Shown: positions 2,698 through 30,447 of the stretch, piece after piece
Layout of the letters: every line of letters begins with the position of its first letter
Numbering within the stretch: the first letter of the stretch is position 1
Source of the DNA: a virus
Taxonomy: Duplodnaviria > Caudoviricetes
Length of the DNA stretch: 32,915 bases
Reading direction: 5' to 3' (one strand)
Virus record (IMG/VR): IMGVR_UViG_3300020045_011830
Location: 1-32,915 of that record
Translations under genes and position numbers: made by a program
Notes under the pieces: generated by a model
What the model was told of the DNA's origin: nothing
The model's database searches: none
Seen by the model: only the letters and a program-made list of their open reading frames with translations

Positions 2698-2916
2698 ATG
2701 TCATTACACGAGGATCTCACTAAAGAGGGATTGAACCCCCTCCGAATGCTCACGGCCACACTTTCGGAACTAGAGCCGGAAGCACGGGCTGACGCGCTGA
2801 TCAAACTCCTTGAGCTGATGTATCGTTATACGCCAAGCGATGAAGCCCTTGACCCCTCCAAGGATACCTCACTGAACGATTTCCTAACGAAACTGGATAA
2901 GTCCCAATGCAAGTAA
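2698..2916 (+). CDS. Small helical protein, possibly terminase small subunit-like
   Basis: 72 aa; GLNPL...ARADAL...YRYTP pattern shared with 10520-10804; overlaps start of next gene. Confidence 0.5.
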   Translation: MSLHEDLTKEGLNPLRMLTATLSELEPEARADALIKLLELMYRYTPSDEALDPSKDTSLNDFLTKLDKSQCK

Positions 2917-4352
2917 ATATCAGCCAGTTAATGAAAGACCTTGACAAGGAACTAAACGCGGCACTGAATGCCGGGAAGACTGACCTGGCGCTGCACATCC
3001 TCCAAACGAAAATTGCTCCACTGAACGCGGATCACCCCCATAACCCGGACATCCTGTACTACACTGGCACGGCGCTGATGCTGCTCAAAATGCCCGGTGT
3101 GGCTATCCCTTTGTTATTGCGTTGCCTGGACTACTCGCCCCGCCATTGGCAAGCGATGAACAACGTCGGATGCTGTTACAAACAACTTGGGAAGAATGAA
3201 CGGGCAAAAGAATTTTTCTTCGATGCCATGCGCCACGGTGGATCGCGAAACCCGGACCTCATGAACAATATTGGCGGCGTATTCACTACCGAGGGCGAAC
3301 CAGAACGCGCGATCATCTACGCCCGTGCGGCACACGAATACGCGGAAAAAGGCCAGCCTACCGCGCAGTACACATGGAATTTGGCCTTGGCGCTAATGGA
3401 ACTCGAAGATTGGGGTAAGGGGTTCCCCCTGTATGAATCCGGCATTCTCTCGAAAGATCGCGGGATCAAGCGCTACATGACCCGGCACGATAAGCTTATT
3501 CCACTGTGGGACCGGACGCCCGGAAAGCGCGTTATCCTCTGCTCTGAACAAGGTCTTGGCGACAATATTCTGTTCGCGTCCGCGTTCGAGTATGCCCATA
3601 AAGACATCCGCTTCTTGCTTGACTGTCATCCGCGACTATATACGCTGTTCCGTCGCAGCTTCCCGGATATCGAAATGTATAATACGTATAAAGCCGAACC
3701 GCCTTACGCCTGGTCAAAGGATCGAGAGTTCGATGCAACAGGAGGAATAGGAAGCTTGCTGGGGCTCTATCATCGTAGCGTCATAGACAAACCGCACCCC
3801 TACCTTGTCCCGGATCGCTGTAAAGTTGAGTACTGGAGACAGCGCTTGAAGTCCACCGGGCCAGGCCCGTACATCGGCTTTTCGTGGAAAGGCGGTACAC
3901 CCTACAGTGGGATCTGGTCGCGTAGTTTCTCGCCGAATGCCTACGATCCGCTGTTCGCTCTCGGTGGCCAGTGGTTCAGCGTGCAATACGATACGGTATC
4001 TGTTCAGGGCTTGAATCTCTCGAAATACGAAAATGTCCACCATTGGGCGGATGCGGTACAAACCTTTGACTACGACGATACGGCGGCTTTCATCAAGGCC
4101 CTGGATTACATCATTAGCCCACCTCAAGCGATTATCCACCTCGCGGGCGCGGTTGGGGTTCCCTGCATGGTGATGGTGCCTTTCGAGAGAGCGTGGCGGT
4201 ATCCGCGTGGGGATCGCATGTACTGGTACTCCAGCGTGAACCAAATCCACAAGCCAAAAGGCGTCACCTGGTCCGACTTCATCGCCGGGAAGGGCGTACA
4301 ACACATGAGGCAATTTATGATATTACACGATTCTATGAAGGTTTTAACATGA
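2907..4352 (+). CDS. TPR-repeat glycosyltransferase (GT-B fold, GT9-like)
   Basis: N-terminal TPR repeats (AMNNVGCCYKQLG, LMNNIGGVF); EQGLGDNILF, IGFSWKGG and ALDYII...IHLAGAVGVP motifs. Confidence 0.85.
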   Translation: MQVNISQLMKDLDKELNAALNAGKTDLALHILQTKIAPLNADHPHNPDILYYTGTALMLLKMPGVAIPLLLRCLDYSPRHWQAMNNVGCCYKQLGKNERAKEFFFDAMRHGGSRNPDLMNNIGGVFTTEGEPERAIIYARAAHEYAEKGQPTAQYTWNLALALMELEDWGKGFPLYESGILSKDRGIKRYMTRHDKLIPLWDRTPGKRVILCSEQGLGDNILFASAFEYAHKDIRFLLDCHPRLYTLFRRSFPDIEMYNTYKAEPPYAWSKDREFDATGGIGSLLGLYHRSVIDKPHPYLVPDRCKVEYWRQRLKSTGPGPYIGFSWKGGTPYSGIWSRSFSPNAYDPLFALGGQWFSVQYDTVSVQGLNLSKYENVHHWADAVQTFDYDDTAAFIKALDYIISPPQAIIHLAGAVGVPCMVMVPFERAWRYPRGDRMYWYSSVNQIHKPKGVTWSDFIAGKGVQHMRQFMILHDSMKVLT

Positions 4353-5011
4353 GAATAGCAATTGTAGGTAATGGCCCGAGCATTCTCGCCCATCCCGAAT
4401 ATGGGGAAATGATTGACAATCATGACAAGGTGATACGATTGAAGCGATGCGCGGCTACCCTGTCCTTACCCCTCCATTTCGGGTCTCGCACGGACATCAT
4501 CGCGGGCAGTATCGGGATCGCGCCCGAACTCTTGGACATCGGGAATAAGGATACCCACATATGGGTATTCACGGATAGTCGGCCCATGGCGCAAGAGGCT
4601 ATCAGGAGCGTAACGCAATTCATCTTTCAACAAAATAGAGTTGTTCGCTGTTTCAGTGATCTTTGCAACCAATTGGACGCGCGCTATCGAGACATGCGCA
4701 TTCCGTTCACGCCCGATGCGCAAACGGCACCCGTGGTAAATCTTGATGCGCCCATAGATGAAAACGGGCAAACGCTAGGACACAATCACACCTCGCAAGG
4801 GATGAAAGCGATTTGCTACGCGCTGCACCTATTGAGACCTGACAGGATCACTCTTTTCGGCTTCGACAACGTGAAAAACGGAACCTTCACATTCTCGCTT
4901 ACACGCGGGTTATCTCACCAGCGCTACCCCTTACACAACTGGCCCACGGAAAAGCTTCTGTTGGAAGCGATAGCGTTGGATCATCCTGACACGGAGATTG
5001 TATTCGCATGA
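4349..5011 (+). CDS. Glycosyltransferase, GT29 (sialyltransferase)-like
   Basis: ATGA-coupled start at 4349; IAIVGNGPS...IDNHDKVIRL (sialyl motif L-like) and TSQG...ITLFGFD (motif S-like). Confidence 0.75.
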   Translation: MRIAIVGNGPSILAHPEYGEMIDNHDKVIRLKRCAATLSLPLHFGSRTDIIAGSIGIAPELLDIGNKDTHIWVFTDSRPMAQEAIRSVTQFIFQQNRVVRCFSDLCNQLDARYRDMRIPFTPDAQTAPVVNLDAPIDENGQTLGHNHTSQGMKAICYALHLLRPDRITLFGFDNVKNGTFTFSLTRGLSHQRYPLHNWPTEKLLLEAIALDHPDTEIVFA

Positions 5012-6342
5012 AATTCATCACTTCAATTTCCTTGGCCGATTGGTTTCTTTACGGTCAGGAAACACTTTATAACCTGGATAAGAATCTGCCGATGAACGCG
5101 GCCTTTATCATCTACGCGGATGATCCGCTACCGCTGCCCAAACCATTTAGTCAGCGTGTCAGCGTGCGCCCGTATGTCCAGCCCGCCAGTATTTTGACTG
5201 AAATGGCCGCGCGTCTGCCCGTGTTTTCTGGCCGTATCGGCGGGAACTACGATTACCGGCATAACTATCGAGCATTCAGCCGCAAAGTGATGGCCATCCT
5301 GGAAACTCTCATGGCCGGTGAAACGGAAATGCTCTTCTGGATAGATGCGGATACCCGTTTTGTCACGCCGCCCCCCGCGACAGTTTTCGAGAGCTTTCTT
5401 GCGGAGCACCCTATTTGCGTGATGCAGCGCAACCAATGGCACCTGTGCAGCTCCTTTGTGGGGTTCAATCTAAAGGTGCCCGCCGTGATGGATTTCCTGG
5501 AACACTTTTGCTTACTCTACAGTAGCGGCCTGGTGCTCACGCTGCCACATTGGGATGATGCCGGTGTACTACATACCCTGCTATCCGAGAACCGCGATAC
5601 GATCCATGTGAAAGACCTGTCACCCCCCAATTTGCCGGAAGGCCCGGTTAACATTTTCGATATCGTGTTTGCCCAATATGGAGGGAATCATCTTAAGGGA
5701 AATATCAAGACCACCGCTACGCCGAGCTTACACCAGCCAAAACGATATAAGGTGATCACCGACACAGCGGCAGAACTGGGATTAGAGGGTGTCGGTAAGG
5801 TCTTCGTTGAAATCGGCACATGGAAGGGAGATCGCGCCGTGGATATCGCGAAAGCGTGTGGAACCAACTTTAAATATATTGGCTTTGATGTGTTTGAAAT
5901 GTACCCCGCCGCCCTCGATGCAATCGAAATGAACGCCAAGCCACATATCCCCATCGCGACAGTAAGAGACCGACTTAAGGCGGCAAATATTGATGCGGAA
6001 CTGATCCAGGGAAGCACACAAGATACACTCCCACTATACACGAGTAAGCACCAGAACTTTGCAGACCTGGTGTATATCGATGGCGGCCATTCCATGCAAA
6101 CGATCGTTCACGATTTGGAGTACGCGATGCGGATGGTCAAAGACACGGGTATCATCATCATGGACGACTATTACGAGGAATGCGATGAGGATACGATGTC
6201 TCGATTCGGTGCACAAACGGTATTGGGACTGCCTGGCGCTCCCCCTTATACCCTGTCCCCACCGGAGGGAGATTGGAAACGCGAAGGCGGAAAGATTAGA
6301 CTGGCCGTTATTCAAGGGAAACACTGCAAACATGGAACCTAA
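5008..6342 (+). CDS. Fusion of GT-A-like glycosyltransferase and class I SAM methyltransferase (Methyltransf_24-like)
   Basis: N-terminal FSRKV...WIDAD (DxD)...WDDA; C-terminal VEIGTWKG, YIDGGHS, GIIIMDDY. Confidence 0.8.
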   Translation: MKFITSISLADWFLYGQETLYNLDKNLPMNAAFIIYADDPLPLPKPFSQRVSVRPYVQPASILTEMAARLPVFSGRIGGNYDYRHNYRAFSRKVMAILETLMAGETEMLFWIDADTRFVTPPPATVFESFLAEHPICVMQRNQWHLCSSFVGFNLKVPAVMDFLEHFCLLYSSGLVLTLPHWDDAGVLHTLLSENRDTIHVKDLSPPNLPEGPVNIFDIVFAQYGGNHLKGNIKTTATPSLHQPKRYKVITDTAAELGLEGVGKVFVEIGTWKGDRAVDIAKACGTNFKYIGFDVFEMYPAALDAIEMNAKPHIPIATVRDRLKAANIDAELIQGSTQDTLPLYTSKHQNFADLVYIDGGHSMQTIVHDLEYAMRMVKDTGIIIMDDYYEECDEDTMSRFGAQTVLGLPGAPPYTLSPPEGDWKREGGKIRLAVIQGKHCKHGT

Positions 6343-7627
6343 AGTCTTGGCGGATGAAGTCGTCTACGCCTTCCCCGGTGGAACCGACATTGTAGAACCC
6401 TTCTGGAACACCGGAGGCACCACGCTGGTAGATATGGGGGGTGGAATTATTGTGTTGAGCGGTCAGATACCCATCGCCGACCCCACACAAACCTATGCCA
6501 ATCTCTACCCCACAATCTGGCGTCGCGATCATAATGGTTGGGAACAGATGCGCGTGGAAACCATGTTCGACACGAGGGAACCCGTGCCCCTGGCCAGACA
6601 CGGCGAGTCCATTTACGCTTACGAAAATCCTCTGCGCGTGGTGGATGGTAAAGGCGGAACGACACTACCGCACCTGGCACGATACGATAGTGAGGATACG
6701 GGCATCACTCCGGACTACATCCCCATTCCCTTTATCGCGGAACCACAAGCTCCCTTATTCACACTTTGGTCTTACCGTGGGATCGCGGTGGATCATTGCC
6801 AGAACACGCTGTTCTTGACGCAGCATACAGAGAACTATTACGCTTCCCTATATACGCTCATGACACCGACCGCTCAGAGTATTCGCACCGGCAAGATTGA
6901 TTACGTAAAGGAGTATTACATCACCGAACCGATGCGCGTGGCCTATCACTGTACGGCGATACACAATAACTTTGCCGTGGCGCTTGGGGTAACGGACATT
7001 TGGGAATATAACCCAGACTTCCTGGCCGTGCGTGGAAAATGGGCCTTTCGACGACTGATGTACACCTGGTCAACCAATCTTAGGGATTCACCCCTAAAAC
7101 CCTGGGTTGAACTCGACCGGGTTGAACAGTATGGCGGGCAGGTACAGCCGCTGGATATCTACCTGGATGATGATCACCGTGTTCACATTCTCTGGTATCG
7201 TGAGAGCATGGACGGCGGATTACAGAATGCGTTTTGGTCTGACATCCCGATCACCTACGAATTGAAATATGGGATCATAGAAAAAGGCGTCCTCATCCAC
7301 ACGCAAACGCTCTTGTATTACGATAACCGCGAAGGCAGATTTGGAGAGTATCCCGTTAAAGCCCGGTTCCAGATTACGCCAGAGAACCGCATTTTCGTTA
7401 TCTTCGGGGCTGGTGGTAGCGTGTACTCTTTGCATGGATACCGCTTCCGGTTAACGGAAATCACGGGATGCACGCACACGGAGCCGGTAACGCTCTGGAC
7501 AAGCGAATACTTCATTTTTAACTTTCAAAATACCAGCGTGCGTTCTGGCTCTCCAAAATCACGGATAGCTAATCTTGCCTTGTGGCAGGGCGGACAAGTG
7601 CGTTATCTCAGGATTCGGGTATGCTGA
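6332..7627 (+). CDS. Hypothetical protein, beta-rich (possible beta-propeller)
   Basis: ATG at 6332 overlapping the upstream gene end; 431 aa, aromatic-rich; inside the GT operon. Confidence 0.6.
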   Translation: MEPKVLADEVVYAFPGGTDIVEPFWNTGGTTLVDMGGGIIVLSGQIPIADPTQTYANLYPTIWRRDHNGWEQMRVETMFDTREPVPLARHGESIYAYENPLRVVDGKGGTTLPHLARYDSEDTGITPDYIPIPFIAEPQAPLFTLWSYRGIAVDHCQNTLFLTQHTENYYASLYTLMTPTAQSIRTGKIDYVKEYYITEPMRVAYHCTAIHNNFAVALGVTDIWEYNPDFLAVRGKWAFRRLMYTWSTNLRDSPLKPWVELDRVEQYGGQVQPLDIYLDDDHRVHILWYRESMDGGLQNAFWSDIPITYELKYGIIEKGVLIHTQTLLYYDNREGRFGEYPVKARFQITPENRIFVIFGAGGSVYSLHGYRFRLTEITGCTHTEPVTLWTSEYFIFNFQNTSVRSGSPKSRIANLALWQGGQVRYLRIRVC

Positions 7628-8130
7628 TCACGCCCGCGTATCTTGCCACGCAGAAGCGCGTGCATAAAGCACAGCCAGCATACGGGATAAGCAGCAAATG
7701 TGGCGTTGCCGCAGCCAAGCTCCTGCATGAAAGCTATGGCGTGGAAAGCATCATTGACTATGGTTGTGGGAAAGGAAGGCTAAAGATCCATTACCCCTAC
7801 GTCTCTATCACGGAATACGATCCTGCGATTGAGGGAAAGGATAACCCGAACCTCTGCCCGGCGGATGCGGTATTGTGCCATGATGTCATGGAGCATATAG
7901 AAGAACGTTGTTTACCTGACGTGATGCGGCATATGACCGCGTTGGCCCTCACGTATTTGTACCTGACCATTACCACGCGCCCGGCAAGAAAGATTCTTCC
8001 TGATGGCCGGAACGCGCACATTACGCTATGGACTCCCAAGGAATGGCTTACCTTCCTGGAGCAGTATTTGACGATTATTATGGAACGCGATGAGAATCAT
8101 GAACTCACTGTATTAGGGATACCTAAATGA
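7621..8130 (+). CDS. Class I SAM-dependent methyltransferase
   Basis: IIDYGCGKG motif I; CHDVMEHIE; DGRNAH. Confidence 0.85.
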   Translation: MLITPAYLATQKRVHKAQPAYGISSKCGVAAAKLLHESYGVESIIDYGCGKGRLKIHYPYVSITEYDPAIEGKDNPNLCPADAVLCHDVMEHIEERCLPDVMRHMTALALTYLYLTITTRPARKILPDGRNAHITLWTPKEWLTFLEQYLTIIMERDENHELTVLGIPK

Positions 8131-22681: not shown

Positions 22682-23191
22682 TTAGTGGCGCTCCTGGCTG
22701 TTAGCGGAGTGCGGGGGACACTCCCCAGGAGCAATATCCCCAAAGTCCCCATCATAAACTTGTCTTTGGAACTTGTCAAGCAACGAATACGTGTAGTACT
22801 CGCCGCCCTCCCGCGATCCAGCCCACACGAACGGCATCATGTACCGCACCTGAAACGCGATGATGGACTGAAGGACAGCATGCGGACTCATCCGCGACAC
22901 GTAACGGTGGATGCGCACCGTGTCCACGGACGCTTCGATCACCACGGCCTTGCACACCTTCGACATCAGTCGCTCCAGCTCGCGCTCGAACCTGTCGCGG
23001 TTCTGCCCCATCAGGCACGACACCAGGTCATCCAGACTCTTTCGCTCAATCGCAATCTCCGCCTCCAGGCCAGGGAGAGAGTAGTCACCTTCGGGCAGCG
23101 CCACGCGCTCAATCTCTACTTCGCGTTTCTCGAAGAGGTAAGGTTTCTGCTCACGTGTGTCAACGAGGACCTTCAGAAGGGTGTTTTGCAT
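22682..23191 (-). CDS. ERCC4-domain nuclease
   Basis: VDTREQKP, GDYS, IERKSLDDL, RFERELER motifs. Confidence 0.9.
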   Translation of the reverse strand: MQNTLLKVLVDTREQKPYLFEKREVEIERVALPEGDYSLPGLEAEIAIERKSLDDLVSCLMGQNRDRFERELERLMSKVCKAVVIEASVDTVRIHRYVSRMSPHAVLQSIIAFQVRYMMPFVWAGSREGGEYYTYSLLDKFQRQVYDGDFGDIAPGECPPHSANSQERH

Positions 23192-23285
23192 GCGGGGCCG
23201 GTAGTATGGTACAGGGTAGGTGGTGATCGCCGCGTTGTAGCTATCGACATACGCGCCAGGGCTGATCCTGGCGCGTTGTTCCCGG

Positions 23286-23492
23286 TTATTTCAGCTGACT
23301 CATCATCTCGACAATGAGTTGCTCTAGATGCGCCATGCGCTCCAGCAGGTCTTGCTTGTCCTTGACGCACTCCAGGTGCCGCGCTTCCAGGAGCGACACG
23401 ATCCGCTGGAAGAGCCACCAGACGACACCGCCCAGGCTGGACACCGCAGCAACAAGGTGCGCGGGATCAATCGCGATGACGTCAGCCGACAT
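23286..23492 (-). CDS. Small membrane protein, holin-like
   Basis: 68 aa from ATG 23492; one TM helix followed by a coiled coil. Confidence 0.55.
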   Translation of the reverse strand: MSADVIAIDPAHLVAAVSSLGGVVWWLFQRIVSLLEARHLECVKDKQDLLERMAHLEQLIVEMMSQLK

Positions 23493-23507
23493 GGGTATCC
23501 CCGGGGG

Positions 23508-23775
23508 GGTCAATCCCCGCGTGTGCGGGGGAATCGCCAGGCTCAAGCCGAACACCGTGGAGTTTTGGGGTCGATCCCCGCGTGTGCGGGGGAATAGTGG
23601 TGACGTTCATTTGTTGCCAAAACCTCCAAGGTCAATCCCCGCGTGTGCGGGGGAATCCCGCGTGTGCGGGGGTATCTGCCGCATGGATAGGGTCAATCCC
23701 CGCGTGTGCGGGGGAATCCAGCCATTCTACCCCACTGCGGGGCTAAGAGTCAATCCCCGCGTGTGCGGGGGTATC
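23508..23775 (-). CRISPR. Type I-E-like CRISPR array A (5 repeats)
   Basis: 28-bp repeats GGTCRATCCCCGCGTGTGCGGGGGWATM at 23508, 23569, 23630, 23691, 23748 (last begins with A); three 33-bp spacers and one 29-bp interval; minus-strand 3' end GGGGATTGACC resembles I-E GGGGATAAACC. Confidence 0.95.
23724..23753 (-). promoter_or_regulatory. Promoter built from repeat end plus 29-bp pseudo-spacer
   Basis: TTGACT (23753-23748)-N18-TAGAAT (23729-23724), 5 bp before the next repeat. Confidence 0.6.
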
Positions 23776-24245
23776 TATGCGCCGTCCCCATTATCCGCCG
23801 TGGTGACGTTCATTTGTTGCCAAACCCTCCAACTTGAGTCTGGATAGGAAGTATTCTGCGCGGCACAGGTATACCCCTTGCTCGCCGCCTGGTAGGTCCC
23901 ACGGAAGAACAAGCTACCCCATCCTTGCGTCTGCACGGCCTTAGCCACGAAGGAGGCAGCGCTATACTCGCCAGGGCCTATTATGTAGCCCACAGATTTG
24001 ATACACGCATTCGTGGCCGGATGAAAACGCCAAAACCGGATCAAATACTGCTGCGAGTTGGTATTGTTTATGAACGTCTGAACGGTGATGAAATCATTAG
24101 CCAGGTCACAGGTGGTGGTATTTCCACACGACATCACGGGATCGGTAGTCGGATCTCCTGGGAAAAACCCCTGGTTCGGACCACAAGCCGCCAAGGCCGC
24201 AACGGAAAGGAAGAAGGAGAAGAACGCGCCGATCTTTTGAATCAT
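23775..24245 (-). CDS. Lipoprotein of unknown function between CRISPR repeats
   Basis: Signal peptide with lipobox LAAC; AGGAAG RBS; stop codon overlaps the repeat by one base. Confidence 0.8.
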   Translation of the reverse strand: MIQKIGAFFSFFLSVAALAACGPNQGFFPGDPTTDPVMSCGNTTTCDLANDFITVQTFINNTNSQQYLIRFWRFHPATNACIKSVGYIIGPGEYSAASFVAKAVQTQGWGSLFFRGTYQAASKGYTCAAQNTSYPDSSWRVWQQMNVTTADNGDGA

Positions 24246-24277
24246 GGTTACACTTCCTGAAAAGTTATTAATCCGCG

Positions 24278-24306
24278 ATTATCCCATAAGCCCCGTGGGG
24301 CGTCAA
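24278..24306 (-). promoter_or_regulatory. Sigma70-like promoter of the lipoprotein gene
   Basis: TTGACG-N17-GATAAT with extended TG; palindrome GCCCCACGGGGC in the spacer. Confidence 0.65.
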
Positions 24307-24315
24307 CCCTTAGAC

Positions 24316-24512
24316 GGTCAATCCCCGCGTGTGCGGGGGTATCTTGGCTTGCTCCGATTTCAAATCGACGCAAGATGGTCGATCCCCGCGTGTGCGGGGG
24401 TATCAATCTCTACTTCGCGTTTCTCGAAGAGGTACGGGGTCAATCCCCGCGTGTGCGGGGGTATCTATCCAGGAGATCGGCTCAGAATTGAGCCAAGGGG
24501 TCGATCCCCGCG
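24316..24512 (-). CRISPR. Type I-E-like CRISPR array B (3 full repeats and 1 half repeat)
   Basis: Repeats ending GGTATC at 24316, 24377, 24438; 14-bp partial repeat at 24499; three 33-bp spacers; exact 61-bp period. Confidence 0.95.
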
Positions 24513-24577
24513 AGCACAAACAGCCACCGGGGGTCCAGACCCTGTTCCTTCATCACGTCCAGCACCAGGATTTCCAT
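24482..24577 (-). CDS. Possible 31-aa peptide running through the half repeat
   Basis: TGATG coupling to the upstream gene; MEILVLDVMKEQGLDPRWLFVLAGIDPLAQF*. Confidence 0.3.
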   Translation of the reverse strand: MEILVLDVMKEQGLDPRWLFVLAGIDPLAQF

Positions 24578-25569
24578 CAATCGAAAATGCCCAGCTTCTG
24601 CGGAGGCTCTTTCCCACGCAATATGGTCTCATACTCTGGGCGATCCAGACTCAAGAAAGGGTGCTTGGCGCGTCGTGTCGCCGCATCCATCCACATGCGA
24701 GCCTCGACTGCCCTGGCTTCCATTTCTCCCGCCAGACGCTTGTAGAGTTCGTGTTTCGTTAGCCATTTCGGCAGCAAGGGGTTTCGCCGGGCGTAGTTTC
24801 CTAGCTCTGGATCGGATGGGGATCCGCCACGCTCAAAGCCCTCGTACCGTTGCACGCGATGCTGTAGTTCGTGGAGCAAGGTCTTTCGCCGGTCGAGCCC
24901 CTCGACGGGTTTCGACGACATCGCCATACTGCCTTCGCCCGCTGCCCCACGCACGCCCGGTGGTAGCTCCTTGATATACACGGGGTAGTCCTTGAGGAAC
25001 GGGTACTGCTTGAAGAGTTCGGGATGATCCAGCAGATTTTTTGCGTAGAACACGCCAGGCTTCATCTCGCCCGTGGCCGGGATCTTAAACTTTGCCTTGG
25101 AATCGTCAATCTCAAACCGCCACTGGTCATCCAGCCCCTTATGCCAGCCAGTCTTTGCCGCGACTTCCTCCCGCGAGAACTTCTTAGCCAGGGCCTCTAT
25201 CGCCTCTGCTCGCTCCCGCAAGGGCGCTTTCTCTGCCTTCGCTCCCGCGAATATGGCCGCTAGGGCACCGGAGAAGCCCTTAGCGCCCGCCTTGAGCTCC
25301 ATGGTAGGGTCAGGTGAGAGTAACCCACCACCCAGGTGTAAGGCCTTCTCTCCCGTCGTTTCTGGGGTAACTGTCGCCAAGAACTTACCCATCTGGTCCT
25401 TTATCCACTCAGACCCCCCCACGGACTTCTCGACCGGCGCCTGGCCGTCCACCATCCGCACCAGGTTCATCAGGGCCTGCATGGCGTCCACGGGCAGGCC
25501 AGCGGTTCCCGCCAGGGATTCGTTGATGCCAGAGCCCAGGAGGCCCAGGGATTTGTCGGCGGATGGCAT
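24577..25569 (-). CDS. LPD23-like polyvalent-domain protein
   Basis: TGWHKGLDDQWRFEIDDS, HPELFKQYP, LLHELQHRVQRYEGFERGG, LAGEMEAR; GAGGA RBS. Confidence 0.8.
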   Translation of the reverse strand: MPSADKSLGLLGSGINESLAGTAGLPVDAMQALMNLVRMVDGQAPVEKSVGGSEWIKDQMGKFLATVTPETTGEKALHLGGGLLSPDPTMELKAGAKGFSGALAAIFAGAKAEKAPLRERAEAIEALAKKFSREEVAAKTGWHKGLDDQWRFEIDDSKAKFKIPATGEMKPGVFYAKNLLDHPELFKQYPFLKDYPVYIKELPPGVRGAAGEGSMAMSSKPVEGLDRRKTLLHELQHRVQRYEGFERGGSPSDPELGNYARRNPLLPKWLTKHELYKRLAGEMEARAVEARMWMDAATRRAKHPFLSLDRPEYETILRGKEPPQKLGIFD

Positions 25570-28402: not shown

Positions 28403-28600
28403 ATATTTTCCCTTTTCCCAAACGGTGGTGGCAGATAAAAGGGCGGGCCAGCGTTTGGGATACTGGCCCGTTACTGCGGGTACGTTGAAGTGTTTGCCCT
28501 GGTTAGACGTCCAGTTGTTCAGTTGTCTAAGCTGAACTGGCAAGACGAATAATCTCTTATTTTCGTGTCCGTGTCAAGTCATTTCTTAGCTCACGCAGTG

Positions 28601-28628
28601 TTGACAACTTTCTAAACTATGTTATACT
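28601..28628 (+). promoter_or_regulatory. Early promoter, copy 1
   Basis: TTGACA-N16-TATACT with extended TG; 34/43 identical to 30367-30409. Confidence 0.75.
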
Positions 28629-28667
28629 GTAATCACAGTATCCGATTAACCCAAAGAGGACAACAGA

Positions 28668-29097: not shown

Positions 29098-30030
29098 ATG
29101 AGTAAAGAAATCAGTTTTCCTGTTCTATTGCAAAAGACCTTGCCGGAAATTGCAAAAGCCTTGCCGAAACATCTTACGGCAGAGCGCATGGGGCGCATTG
29201 CGCTGACCGCCTTCCGACAGAACCCGGCGCTTGCGGAGTGCGATCCAATGTCGATCATCGCGTGTGTTGTGCAGTCCGCGCAACTGGGTCTGGAGCTGGG
29301 GGTTAGCGGGCATGCTTTCCTTGTGCCGTATAACGGACGGTGCCAATTTGTTCCCGGCTGGCGTGGGCTGGTGGACCTGGTGAGCCGCGCGGGACGTAGC
29401 TCTGTCCACACGGGAGTAATCCATCAGGGGCAAGAGTATCGCTACACGCAAGGGGCAAGGCCGGACCTGGCGATCCTTACGGAGTCGGATGAGGATAAGC
29501 CGATCATCTACGCGTATGCCGTGGGTTGGGTAAAAGGCGCGGAATGGCCTGTCATCGAGATGTGGAGTGCCGAGAAACTCATGAAGCACCGCGACAGGTA
29601 TAACAAGGTAGGGAAGCGACACTACTCCTACGCGAACTGGGAAATGTACTGTCGCAAAGTTGTTTTGCTCCAGGTGTTAAAGTACATGCCTTCGTCCGTG
29701 GAGTTGTCAACGGCGATAGCGCTGAACGACGCAGCTGAAGTGGGTAATCAAGGCGTAACCGTGGAAGGAGCAATTGACTGGTCCTGGACGCCCCCTGAGC
29801 GCGATGAAATAGGTGCGCCGGATGGGAGTGAGCCATCCTCGACAAGAGAGGGCGTGAAGGTCGCGTATGCGGGAGAAATCCAGGCCATCAAGGAGCATTT
29901 GGGGATGGGTGATGTAGCCGAGGCTAAGCGGCTTTGGGCGGCGATCCCGCAAGCGGACCAGATTCAATTATGGGTCGCCCCGACCAAAGGCGGGTGTTTT
30001 ACAACGGAAGAGCGTGAGCAGTTGAGGTGA
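29098..30030 (+). CDS. recT: RecT-family single-strand annealing recombinase
   Basis: IAKALPKHLTAERM, CDPMS...SAQLGLE, AFLVPY, GWRGLVDL, WEMYCRKVV; GAGGA RBS. Confidence 0.92.
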   Translation: MSKEISFPVLLQKTLPEIAKALPKHLTAERMGRIALTAFRQNPALAECDPMSIIACVVQSAQLGLELGVSGHAFLVPYNGRCQFVPGWRGLVDLVSRAGRSSVHTGVIHQGQEYRYTQGARPDLAILTESDEDKPIIYAYAVGWVKGAEWPVIEMWSAEKLMKHRDRYNKVGKRHYSYANWEMYCRKVVLLQVLKYMPSSVELSTAIALNDAAEVGNQGVTVEGAIDWSWTPPERDEIGAPDGSEPSSTREGVKVAYAGEIQAIKEHLGMGDVAEAKRLWAAIPQADQIQLWVAPTKGGCFTTEEREQLR

Positions 30031-30363: not shown

Positions 30364-30373
30364 CTGCGCAGCA

Positions 30374-30401
30374 TTGACAACTTATCAAACAATGCTATAC
30401 T
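30374..30401 (+). promoter_or_regulatory. Early promoter, copy 2
   Basis: TTGACA-N16-TATACT with extended TG. Confidence 0.75.
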
Positions 30402-30447
30402 TTAATTACGAACAGAAAATAGTCTTACTAACCATAGGAGCATTTCA

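Follow-up and report, generated by a model that had tools for sequence, protein, structure and literature searches.

A phage mini-array spacer that runs into CRISPR repeat sequence, and its possible capture from a sibling array

The window, by which we mean the whole 32,915-nt stretch of DNA analysed here, is a contig that encodes portal, major head, terminase, primase, RecT and endolysin families and is thereby identified as that of a tailed phage; the first five of these families also place it among viral genomes. Among the 35 of 97 listed ORFs that were scanned against Pfam on this contig, which may be incomplete, no cas gene was detected. Two short CRISPR arrays, A and B, are nevertheless present on the minus strand, and they are separated by a lipoprotein-like orphan ORF of 156 aa (23775..24245, minus strand), the stop codon of which overlaps the last repeat of array A. 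Its translation contains what we take to be a lipobox, and a search with this ORF returned only itself. Downstream of array A lies an ERCC4-type nuclease gene (22682..23191, minus strand); its named homologues, with 57-62% identity, are from Desulfobacterota, which from sequence similarity gives a weak hint at the host. A gene for an LPD23-domain protein (24577-25569, minus strand) is located immediately upstream of array B. A RecT-like annealing protein is encoded at 29098..30030 on the plus strand, and repeat-spacer units might, as we infer, be moved by recombination with its help. Elsewhere on the contig we observed a gene cluster at 2907-8130 with a TPR gene, a family-29 glycosyltransferase gene (sialyltransferase-like) and methyltransferase genes, as well as a pair of related AT-rich elements, at 28594-28636 and 30367-30409, which resemble strong sigma-70 promoters.

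Mini-array A (23508..23775, minus strand) is composed of five 28-nt repeats, starting at 23508, 23569, 23630, 23691 and 23748, and of four spacers of 33, 33, 33 and 29 nt. Repeats 1 to 4 have an A at position 25 and repeat 5 a T. Mini-array B (24316..24537, minus strand) contains three GTATC-type repeats (starts at 24316, 24377 and 24438), three 33-nt spacers and, from 24499 on, an altered fourth repeat. This outer repeat (24499-24537) has kept the 5'-handle half and both stem arms; its loop is longer but a stem still folds, and it might still be processed. Ahead of repeat A1, at 23493-23507, a 7-nt end of a GTATC-type repeat is followed by just 8 nt, and this is probably a decayed trailer unit. 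Repeat position 5 reads A, G, A, A, A along array A and A, G, A, G along array B; positions 25 and 28 also vary, each independently of the other. Recombination fits better with such a mosaic of repeat variants than does serial copying at the leader end.

The 28-nt hairpin repeat, the 33-nt spacers and a repeat family linked to cse1, cse2 and cas6e assign both arrays to type I-E; the linkage comes from a metagenome locus, L017, in which this family is found beside a full I-E operon and the repeat is different by a few bases. The exact repeat pattern of the window gave no match in genome contigs and none in viral contigs. Its shorter core was found at six viral loci, none of them similar to the window outside the repeat. 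Two short viral contigs (L005 and L008) each hold a lone copy of the arrays' repeat family and are candidate solitary repeat units. The repeats of the window sit in arrays with spacers and thus do not belong to the Racr/solitary-repeat class.

The third spacer of array A, spacer A3 (23658..23690, minus strand), has an unusual composition. A first, sequence-only reading of this DNA had described it as a 33-nt spacer preserving the 61-nt period and made of 19 nt of repeat plus 14 unique nt, and array parsing confirmed this description. The 19 nt (23658-23676), which come first on the plus strand, correspond to positions 10-28 of a GTATC-type repeat, with a T at position 25 where both flanking repeats have an A. 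The same reading had taken the GTATC form as the array-B variant. Indeed, the three full B repeats are GTATC and the repeat part of A3 is not of the flanking form, but the last repeat of array A (23748-23775) is GTATC as well, and the form is not peculiar to array B. The other 14 nt (23677-23690) are unique in the window, as had been claimed, the best other match being 11/14. We compared A3 with 158 unique spacers from 22 metagenome loci with this repeat family, covering inter-repeat gaps of up to 61 nt. None of the 158 holds 9 nt or more of repeat, the longest stretch being 8 nt, so that the repeat part of A3 is beyond chance. With its 33 nt A3 has the canonical length, like 156 of these 158 spacers and five of the six other spacers of the window. 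The observation is real: A3 is an unusual spacer in an element of an otherwise known kind.

The orientation of the arrays was deduced from L017, where the array follows cse1, cse2, cas7, cas5, cas6e, cas1e and cas2e, and a leader separates it from cas2. Since the leader is on the cas2 side, the crRNA strand is the minus strand of the window, the unique part of A3 is PAM-proximal and the repeat part PAM-distal. This bears out the earlier proposal that the 14 unique nt fall in the seed. By the E. coli convention, base 1 of the 33 is the last base of the PAM; in the crRNA sense, the first base of A3 is a C, the commonest one in the family (84/156).

Two of the six other spacers (two of all seven) match the phage's own genome. 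Spacer A2 (23597..23629, minus strand), which is the older neighbour of A3 if the leader polarity holds, matches 32/33 nt at 23800..23832 (minus strand), within the 3'-terminal part of the lipoprotein-like ORF. The genomic site differs from the spacer at position 8 of 33, where it encodes V and the spacer F, and is preceded by AG, not AA, then T. For the gene at 23775-24245 targeted in this way, a role in superinfection exclusion is our guess. Spacer B2 (24405..24437, minus strand) matches 32/33 nt at 23111..23143 (minus strand), within the ERCC4 gene, with AA then C upstream and a synonymous mismatch at position 3 of 33, in the seed. The AA PAM considered below is thus taken from one of the two self-matches. 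Both targets are on the same strand as the repeat part of A3 and lie 25 and 365 nt from array A, a proximity with a chance of about 0.003 on this contig (a post hoc estimate). Four of the seven spacers, A3 aside, have no known target; parts of spacers A2 and A1, which were the two covered by a pattern search besides A3, gave no viral match, and none of the 158 host spacers came within 7 mismatches of the window. We also considered A2 as a spacer that targets a leader motif, and rejected it because 692 window positions score equally.

Self-matches with changes in the seed or the PAM are what is known from mini-arrays directed against sibling viruses. According to the accessible text of Medvedeva et al. 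2019 (PMC6858448), the targets of the SPV1/SPV2 mini-arrays also lie near the mini-arrays and the viruses' own copies have mismatches in the seed or PAM; targeting of sibling viruses by mini-arrays is likewise described in the accessible parts of PMC11656645 and PMC7099407. The present locus resembles SPV1/SPV2 in its short arrays, with no cas gene among the ORFs scanned, in putative near-identical sibling targets near the arrays and in the point changes of its own copies. As in the phage mini-arrays of Faure et al. 2019, as cited in the available sections of PMC6858448, PMC7099407 and PMC11656645, the arrays are leaderless. Unlike virus-borne mini-arrays, which by definition have one or two spacers, A and B hold four and three, respectively; they have a type I-E repeat with variant ends, and one spacer contains repeat sequence, a case not met in the available sections of the same three articles. 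The locus works like a virus-borne mini-array, sharing the main testable features, though it is longer than the definition.

How did A3 come to contain a repeat end? The sequence-only reading had proposed its capture from a repeat junction of another array. This is still the best-supported origin, in view of the canonical length, of two local targets on the same strand and of deletions that rarely restore the period, but the donor junction that should accompany it was not found. We consider it fairly probable that the type I-E Cas1-Cas2 of the host cut A3 out of the mini-array of a close relative of this phage, at a repeat junction. More precisely, the arrays would use host Cascade against sibling phages. 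Guides like B2 and A2, directed at sibling DNA adjoining the arrays, would prime uptake on the same strand from the PAM side, where GTATC repeats lie. The captured fragment would start at an AA PAM inside a spacer or flank of the sibling and extend 19 nt into the next repeat. It could then enter array A directly or by repeat-mediated recombination from a host array, the second route being proposed because no host-type leader was seen. Indeed, with a leader profile built from 6 host leaders, the best flank scores were -1.7 for array A and 0.0 for array B, compared with 25-32 for the training sites, which makes direct integration doubtful. The donor could be array B of a sibling, the last array-A repeat of a sibling, or a host array.

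The accessible text on priming in E. coli type I-E describes acquisition from the same strand on the PAM side (PMC9699676). In this direction the A2 target leads to array B and the B2 target to both arrays, and GTATC repeats are present there. On the minus strand of 22800-25200, 14 of the 123 33-mers preceded by AA (about 11%) overlap a repeat by at least 10 nt, two of them by exactly 19. A3 is more likely a by-product of such local, probably primed, acquisition than a selected anti-array weapon.

The main competitor as to origin is a relic formed inside array A itself, one event having removed a spacer plus 9 nt of the next GTATC repeat and a second one 19 nt of the following spacer, with the 61-nt period restored by coincidence; in a one-step variant, a length-conserving template switch would occur at the repeat hairpin. 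Such a history is conceivable, as a GTATC repeat is present in array A and the phage encodes RecT. In addition, imprecise lesions are seen in both arrays, namely the 29-nt spacer A4, the altered fourth B repeat and the 7-nt repeat-end relic to the left of A; deletion is therefore active here, a point against capture. Truncated repeats also exist in related host arrays (L009, L016 and L021), but at trailer ends and not internally. When two deletions were drawn uniformly, which is a simplification, their sum left exactly 33 nt in 16 of 450 cases (3.6%) and 32-34 nt in 48 of 450. Microhomology is roughly neutral for slippage, because 4 nt are available one base away, at the price of one further lost C, but just 1 nt at the actual junction. 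Nor does the relic make use of the fact that the other targets cluster around the arrays. All in all we regard it as unlikely, without dismissing it.

Under capture from a sibling, the 14 nt should directly follow a GTATC repeat and have an AA PAM on their far side. This arrangement, which the first reading had proposed as a check, was looked for in viral, metagenome and genome collections and was not found; the 22-nt junction had no match in metagenome and genome contigs. Two viral 17-mer matches were discarded as donors, since they are chance hits in unrelated sequence without the repeat. Nor did single queries with the ERCC4 and capsid proteins find a sibling phage. Among the best 80 of 227 loci in an ERCC4 alignment (at most 61% identity), none has a type I-E-like array and none is syntenic. 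One viral contig with an ERCC4 relative (L064) carries, at 427-650, a CRISPR-like array with a different 36-nt repeat. The array region gave only matches of E≥1 against INPHARED phages, only repeat-level matches against plasmids, and one chance match in Rfam. The first 7 crRNA-sense bases of A3 are also found at 23841-23847, beside the A2 target, and were considered as a deleted flank of a sibling; this is probably chance, since there is no AA PAM, seven other copies of the 7-mer occur and, in the same control, spacer B3 yields a match of 6 nt.

The fragment might instead stem from the host's own array, at a repeat-spacer or repeat-leader junction, and have been kept as a guide turning Cascade on that array. 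Acquisition hotspots adjoining active CRISPR loci, as described in the accessible text of PMC10011333 and PMC7521656, argue for it, and the repeat of the host could be of the GTATC form. On the other hand, the host-type repeats compared end in GAACC, GAAAC or GAGAC, the first two being one change from GAATC and two from GTATC; the 14 nt are unlike any host-array flank compared, and both identified targets are phage sequence. We judge a host-array source quite improbable.

Repeat regions are error-prone in assembly and this contig is the sole record of these genes, so an assembly or amplification artefact had to be weighed. Against it stand the exact 61-nt period and the fact that the 15-, 21- and 31-mers tested across both junctions each occur once in the window. 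A de Bruijn assembler would therefore not have produced them by mis-joining repeats, and these k-mers presumably come from reads. An artefact appears to us the least probable explanation.

If captured, would A3 act as a guide? Minus-strand sites resembling promoters by their match to the consensus would transcribe both arrays. One of them, sigma-70-like (24278..24306, minus strand; 10/12 with a TG), is ahead of the lipoprotein-like ORF and would read into array A. Another (23724..23753, minus strand; 10/12) arises from repeat A5 together with the 29-nt spacer A4; by a post hoc estimate, the chance of such a site over five repeats is about 0.03. Transcription from there would begin near the first base of repeat A4, making A3 the first guide, and spacer A4 may have turned into a promoter. 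These two sites have a GC-rich palindrome between their hexamers. Within the window, A3 finds its best match at 25/33; this match includes 6 of the 14 unique nt and has no AA. Since its seed lies in 14 foreign nt that are unmatched in the phage's own arrays, self-attack is not expected; A3 would direct Cascade to the array of a sibling. That A3 is a working and selected anti-array guide, with its PAM and seed inside a spacer of a rival phage, seems to us possible but rather unlikely.

Together with the initial G of the adjoining repeat A3, the repeat-derived end of spacer A3 is predicted to form a pseudo-repeat hairpin with a 5-bp stem (23657..23670, minus strand). Its pair probability is 0.77-0.79 in a fold of the whole array and 0.35 in an isolated repeat-spacer-repeat unit; in the processed 61-nt RNA, it is 0.5, compared with about 0.4 for the true 3' hairpin. 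By this model, the internal hairpin may lead Cas6e to shorten A3 or may spoil the guide, and a Cas6e cut there might leave a spacer of 13-14 nt. Full, short and misfolded A3 guides are all possible products of these folds.

The short product suggests a further reading, compatible with either origin, in which A3 is a functional Cracr-like unit: cleavage by Cas6e would free a guide whose spacer is 13-14 nt long, and this guide would sequester Cascade or repress a cas promoter of the host. Apart from the hairpin predicted in the whole array, this reading can call on the phage I-E Cracr arrays, in which, according to the available part of the preprint, spacers measure 21-24 nt and a repeat has lost 1 nt (10.1101/2024.10.29.618823), and on 14-nt spacers in E. 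coli, which, from the accessible text of PMC5159557, still prime without supporting interference. Yet the stem is one pair short and the 1-nt-deleted Cracr repeat is itself poorly processed according to the same part of that preprint. A Cracr guide would be expected to match a cas or toxin promoter over at least 9 PAM-proximal nt. In addition, the 14 nt with an AA PAM are unmatched in loci L001-L030, the 12/14 matches in L011, L019 and L022 (one shared site) have no PAM, and the neighbouring spacers are ordinary anti-sibling guides. We hold this reading to be very unlikely.

Parts of this picture have precedents. Spacers against cas genes (PMC2886076) and uptake beside CRISPR loci (PMC10011333, PMC7521656) are already known, as far as the accessible text of these sources goes. 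With primed adaptation of E. coli type I-E (PMC9699676) our locus shares 33-bp spacers near a priming site under a fixed strand rule, and with the hotspots the uptake from DNA adjoining arrays; those cases concern the laboratory and host DNA, in contrast to a natural phage array and a fragment entering a repeat. The residual 'anti-CRISPR' arrays of E. coli (Touchon and Rocha 2010, PMC2886076), in the portion available, are also short, lack cas genes and have spacers that match CRISPR-Cas parts, but they are chromosomal, target cas genes and are conserved across strains, whereas here we have a phage-borne array, an array junction and a single occurrence. Cracr (10.1101/2024.10.29.618823) and Racr (PMC11656645) are, in the sections available, repeat-flanked phage units that engage host Cascade, with short spacers and imperfect repeats among them; our locus differs from them in that its repeats stand in arrays and its remaining spacers are full-length, and a PAM-bearing match to a cas promoter was not seen in loci L001-L030. 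In the accessible literature, including PMC13739734, we came across no viral spacer described as extending over a repeat junction; the supplementary spacer tables of PMC6858448 and of the Cracr preprint may hold such cases.

In the available text, Medvedeva et al. regarded the origin and consequences of mini-array targets that adjoin arrays as unclear (PMC6858448). If A3 is a relic, the locus is an ordinary pair of mini-arrays. If it is an anti-array guide, the easiest escape of the rival would be to delete or mutate the targeted spacer, thereby disarming itself; phage mini-arrays would fight over arrays, and priming cascades would explain the clustering of targets beside them. Programs that call arrays may split units like A3 wrongly, and such units could therefore be commoner than reported. 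At the present locus the pattern of targets beside arrays is seen in a bacterial type I-E context, together with the extreme case that it would lead one to expect, a spacer reaching into the repeat. If capture from a sibling is true, it supports local primed acquisition as the cause of this pattern and offers a compact, testable example of a guide directed against a different array.
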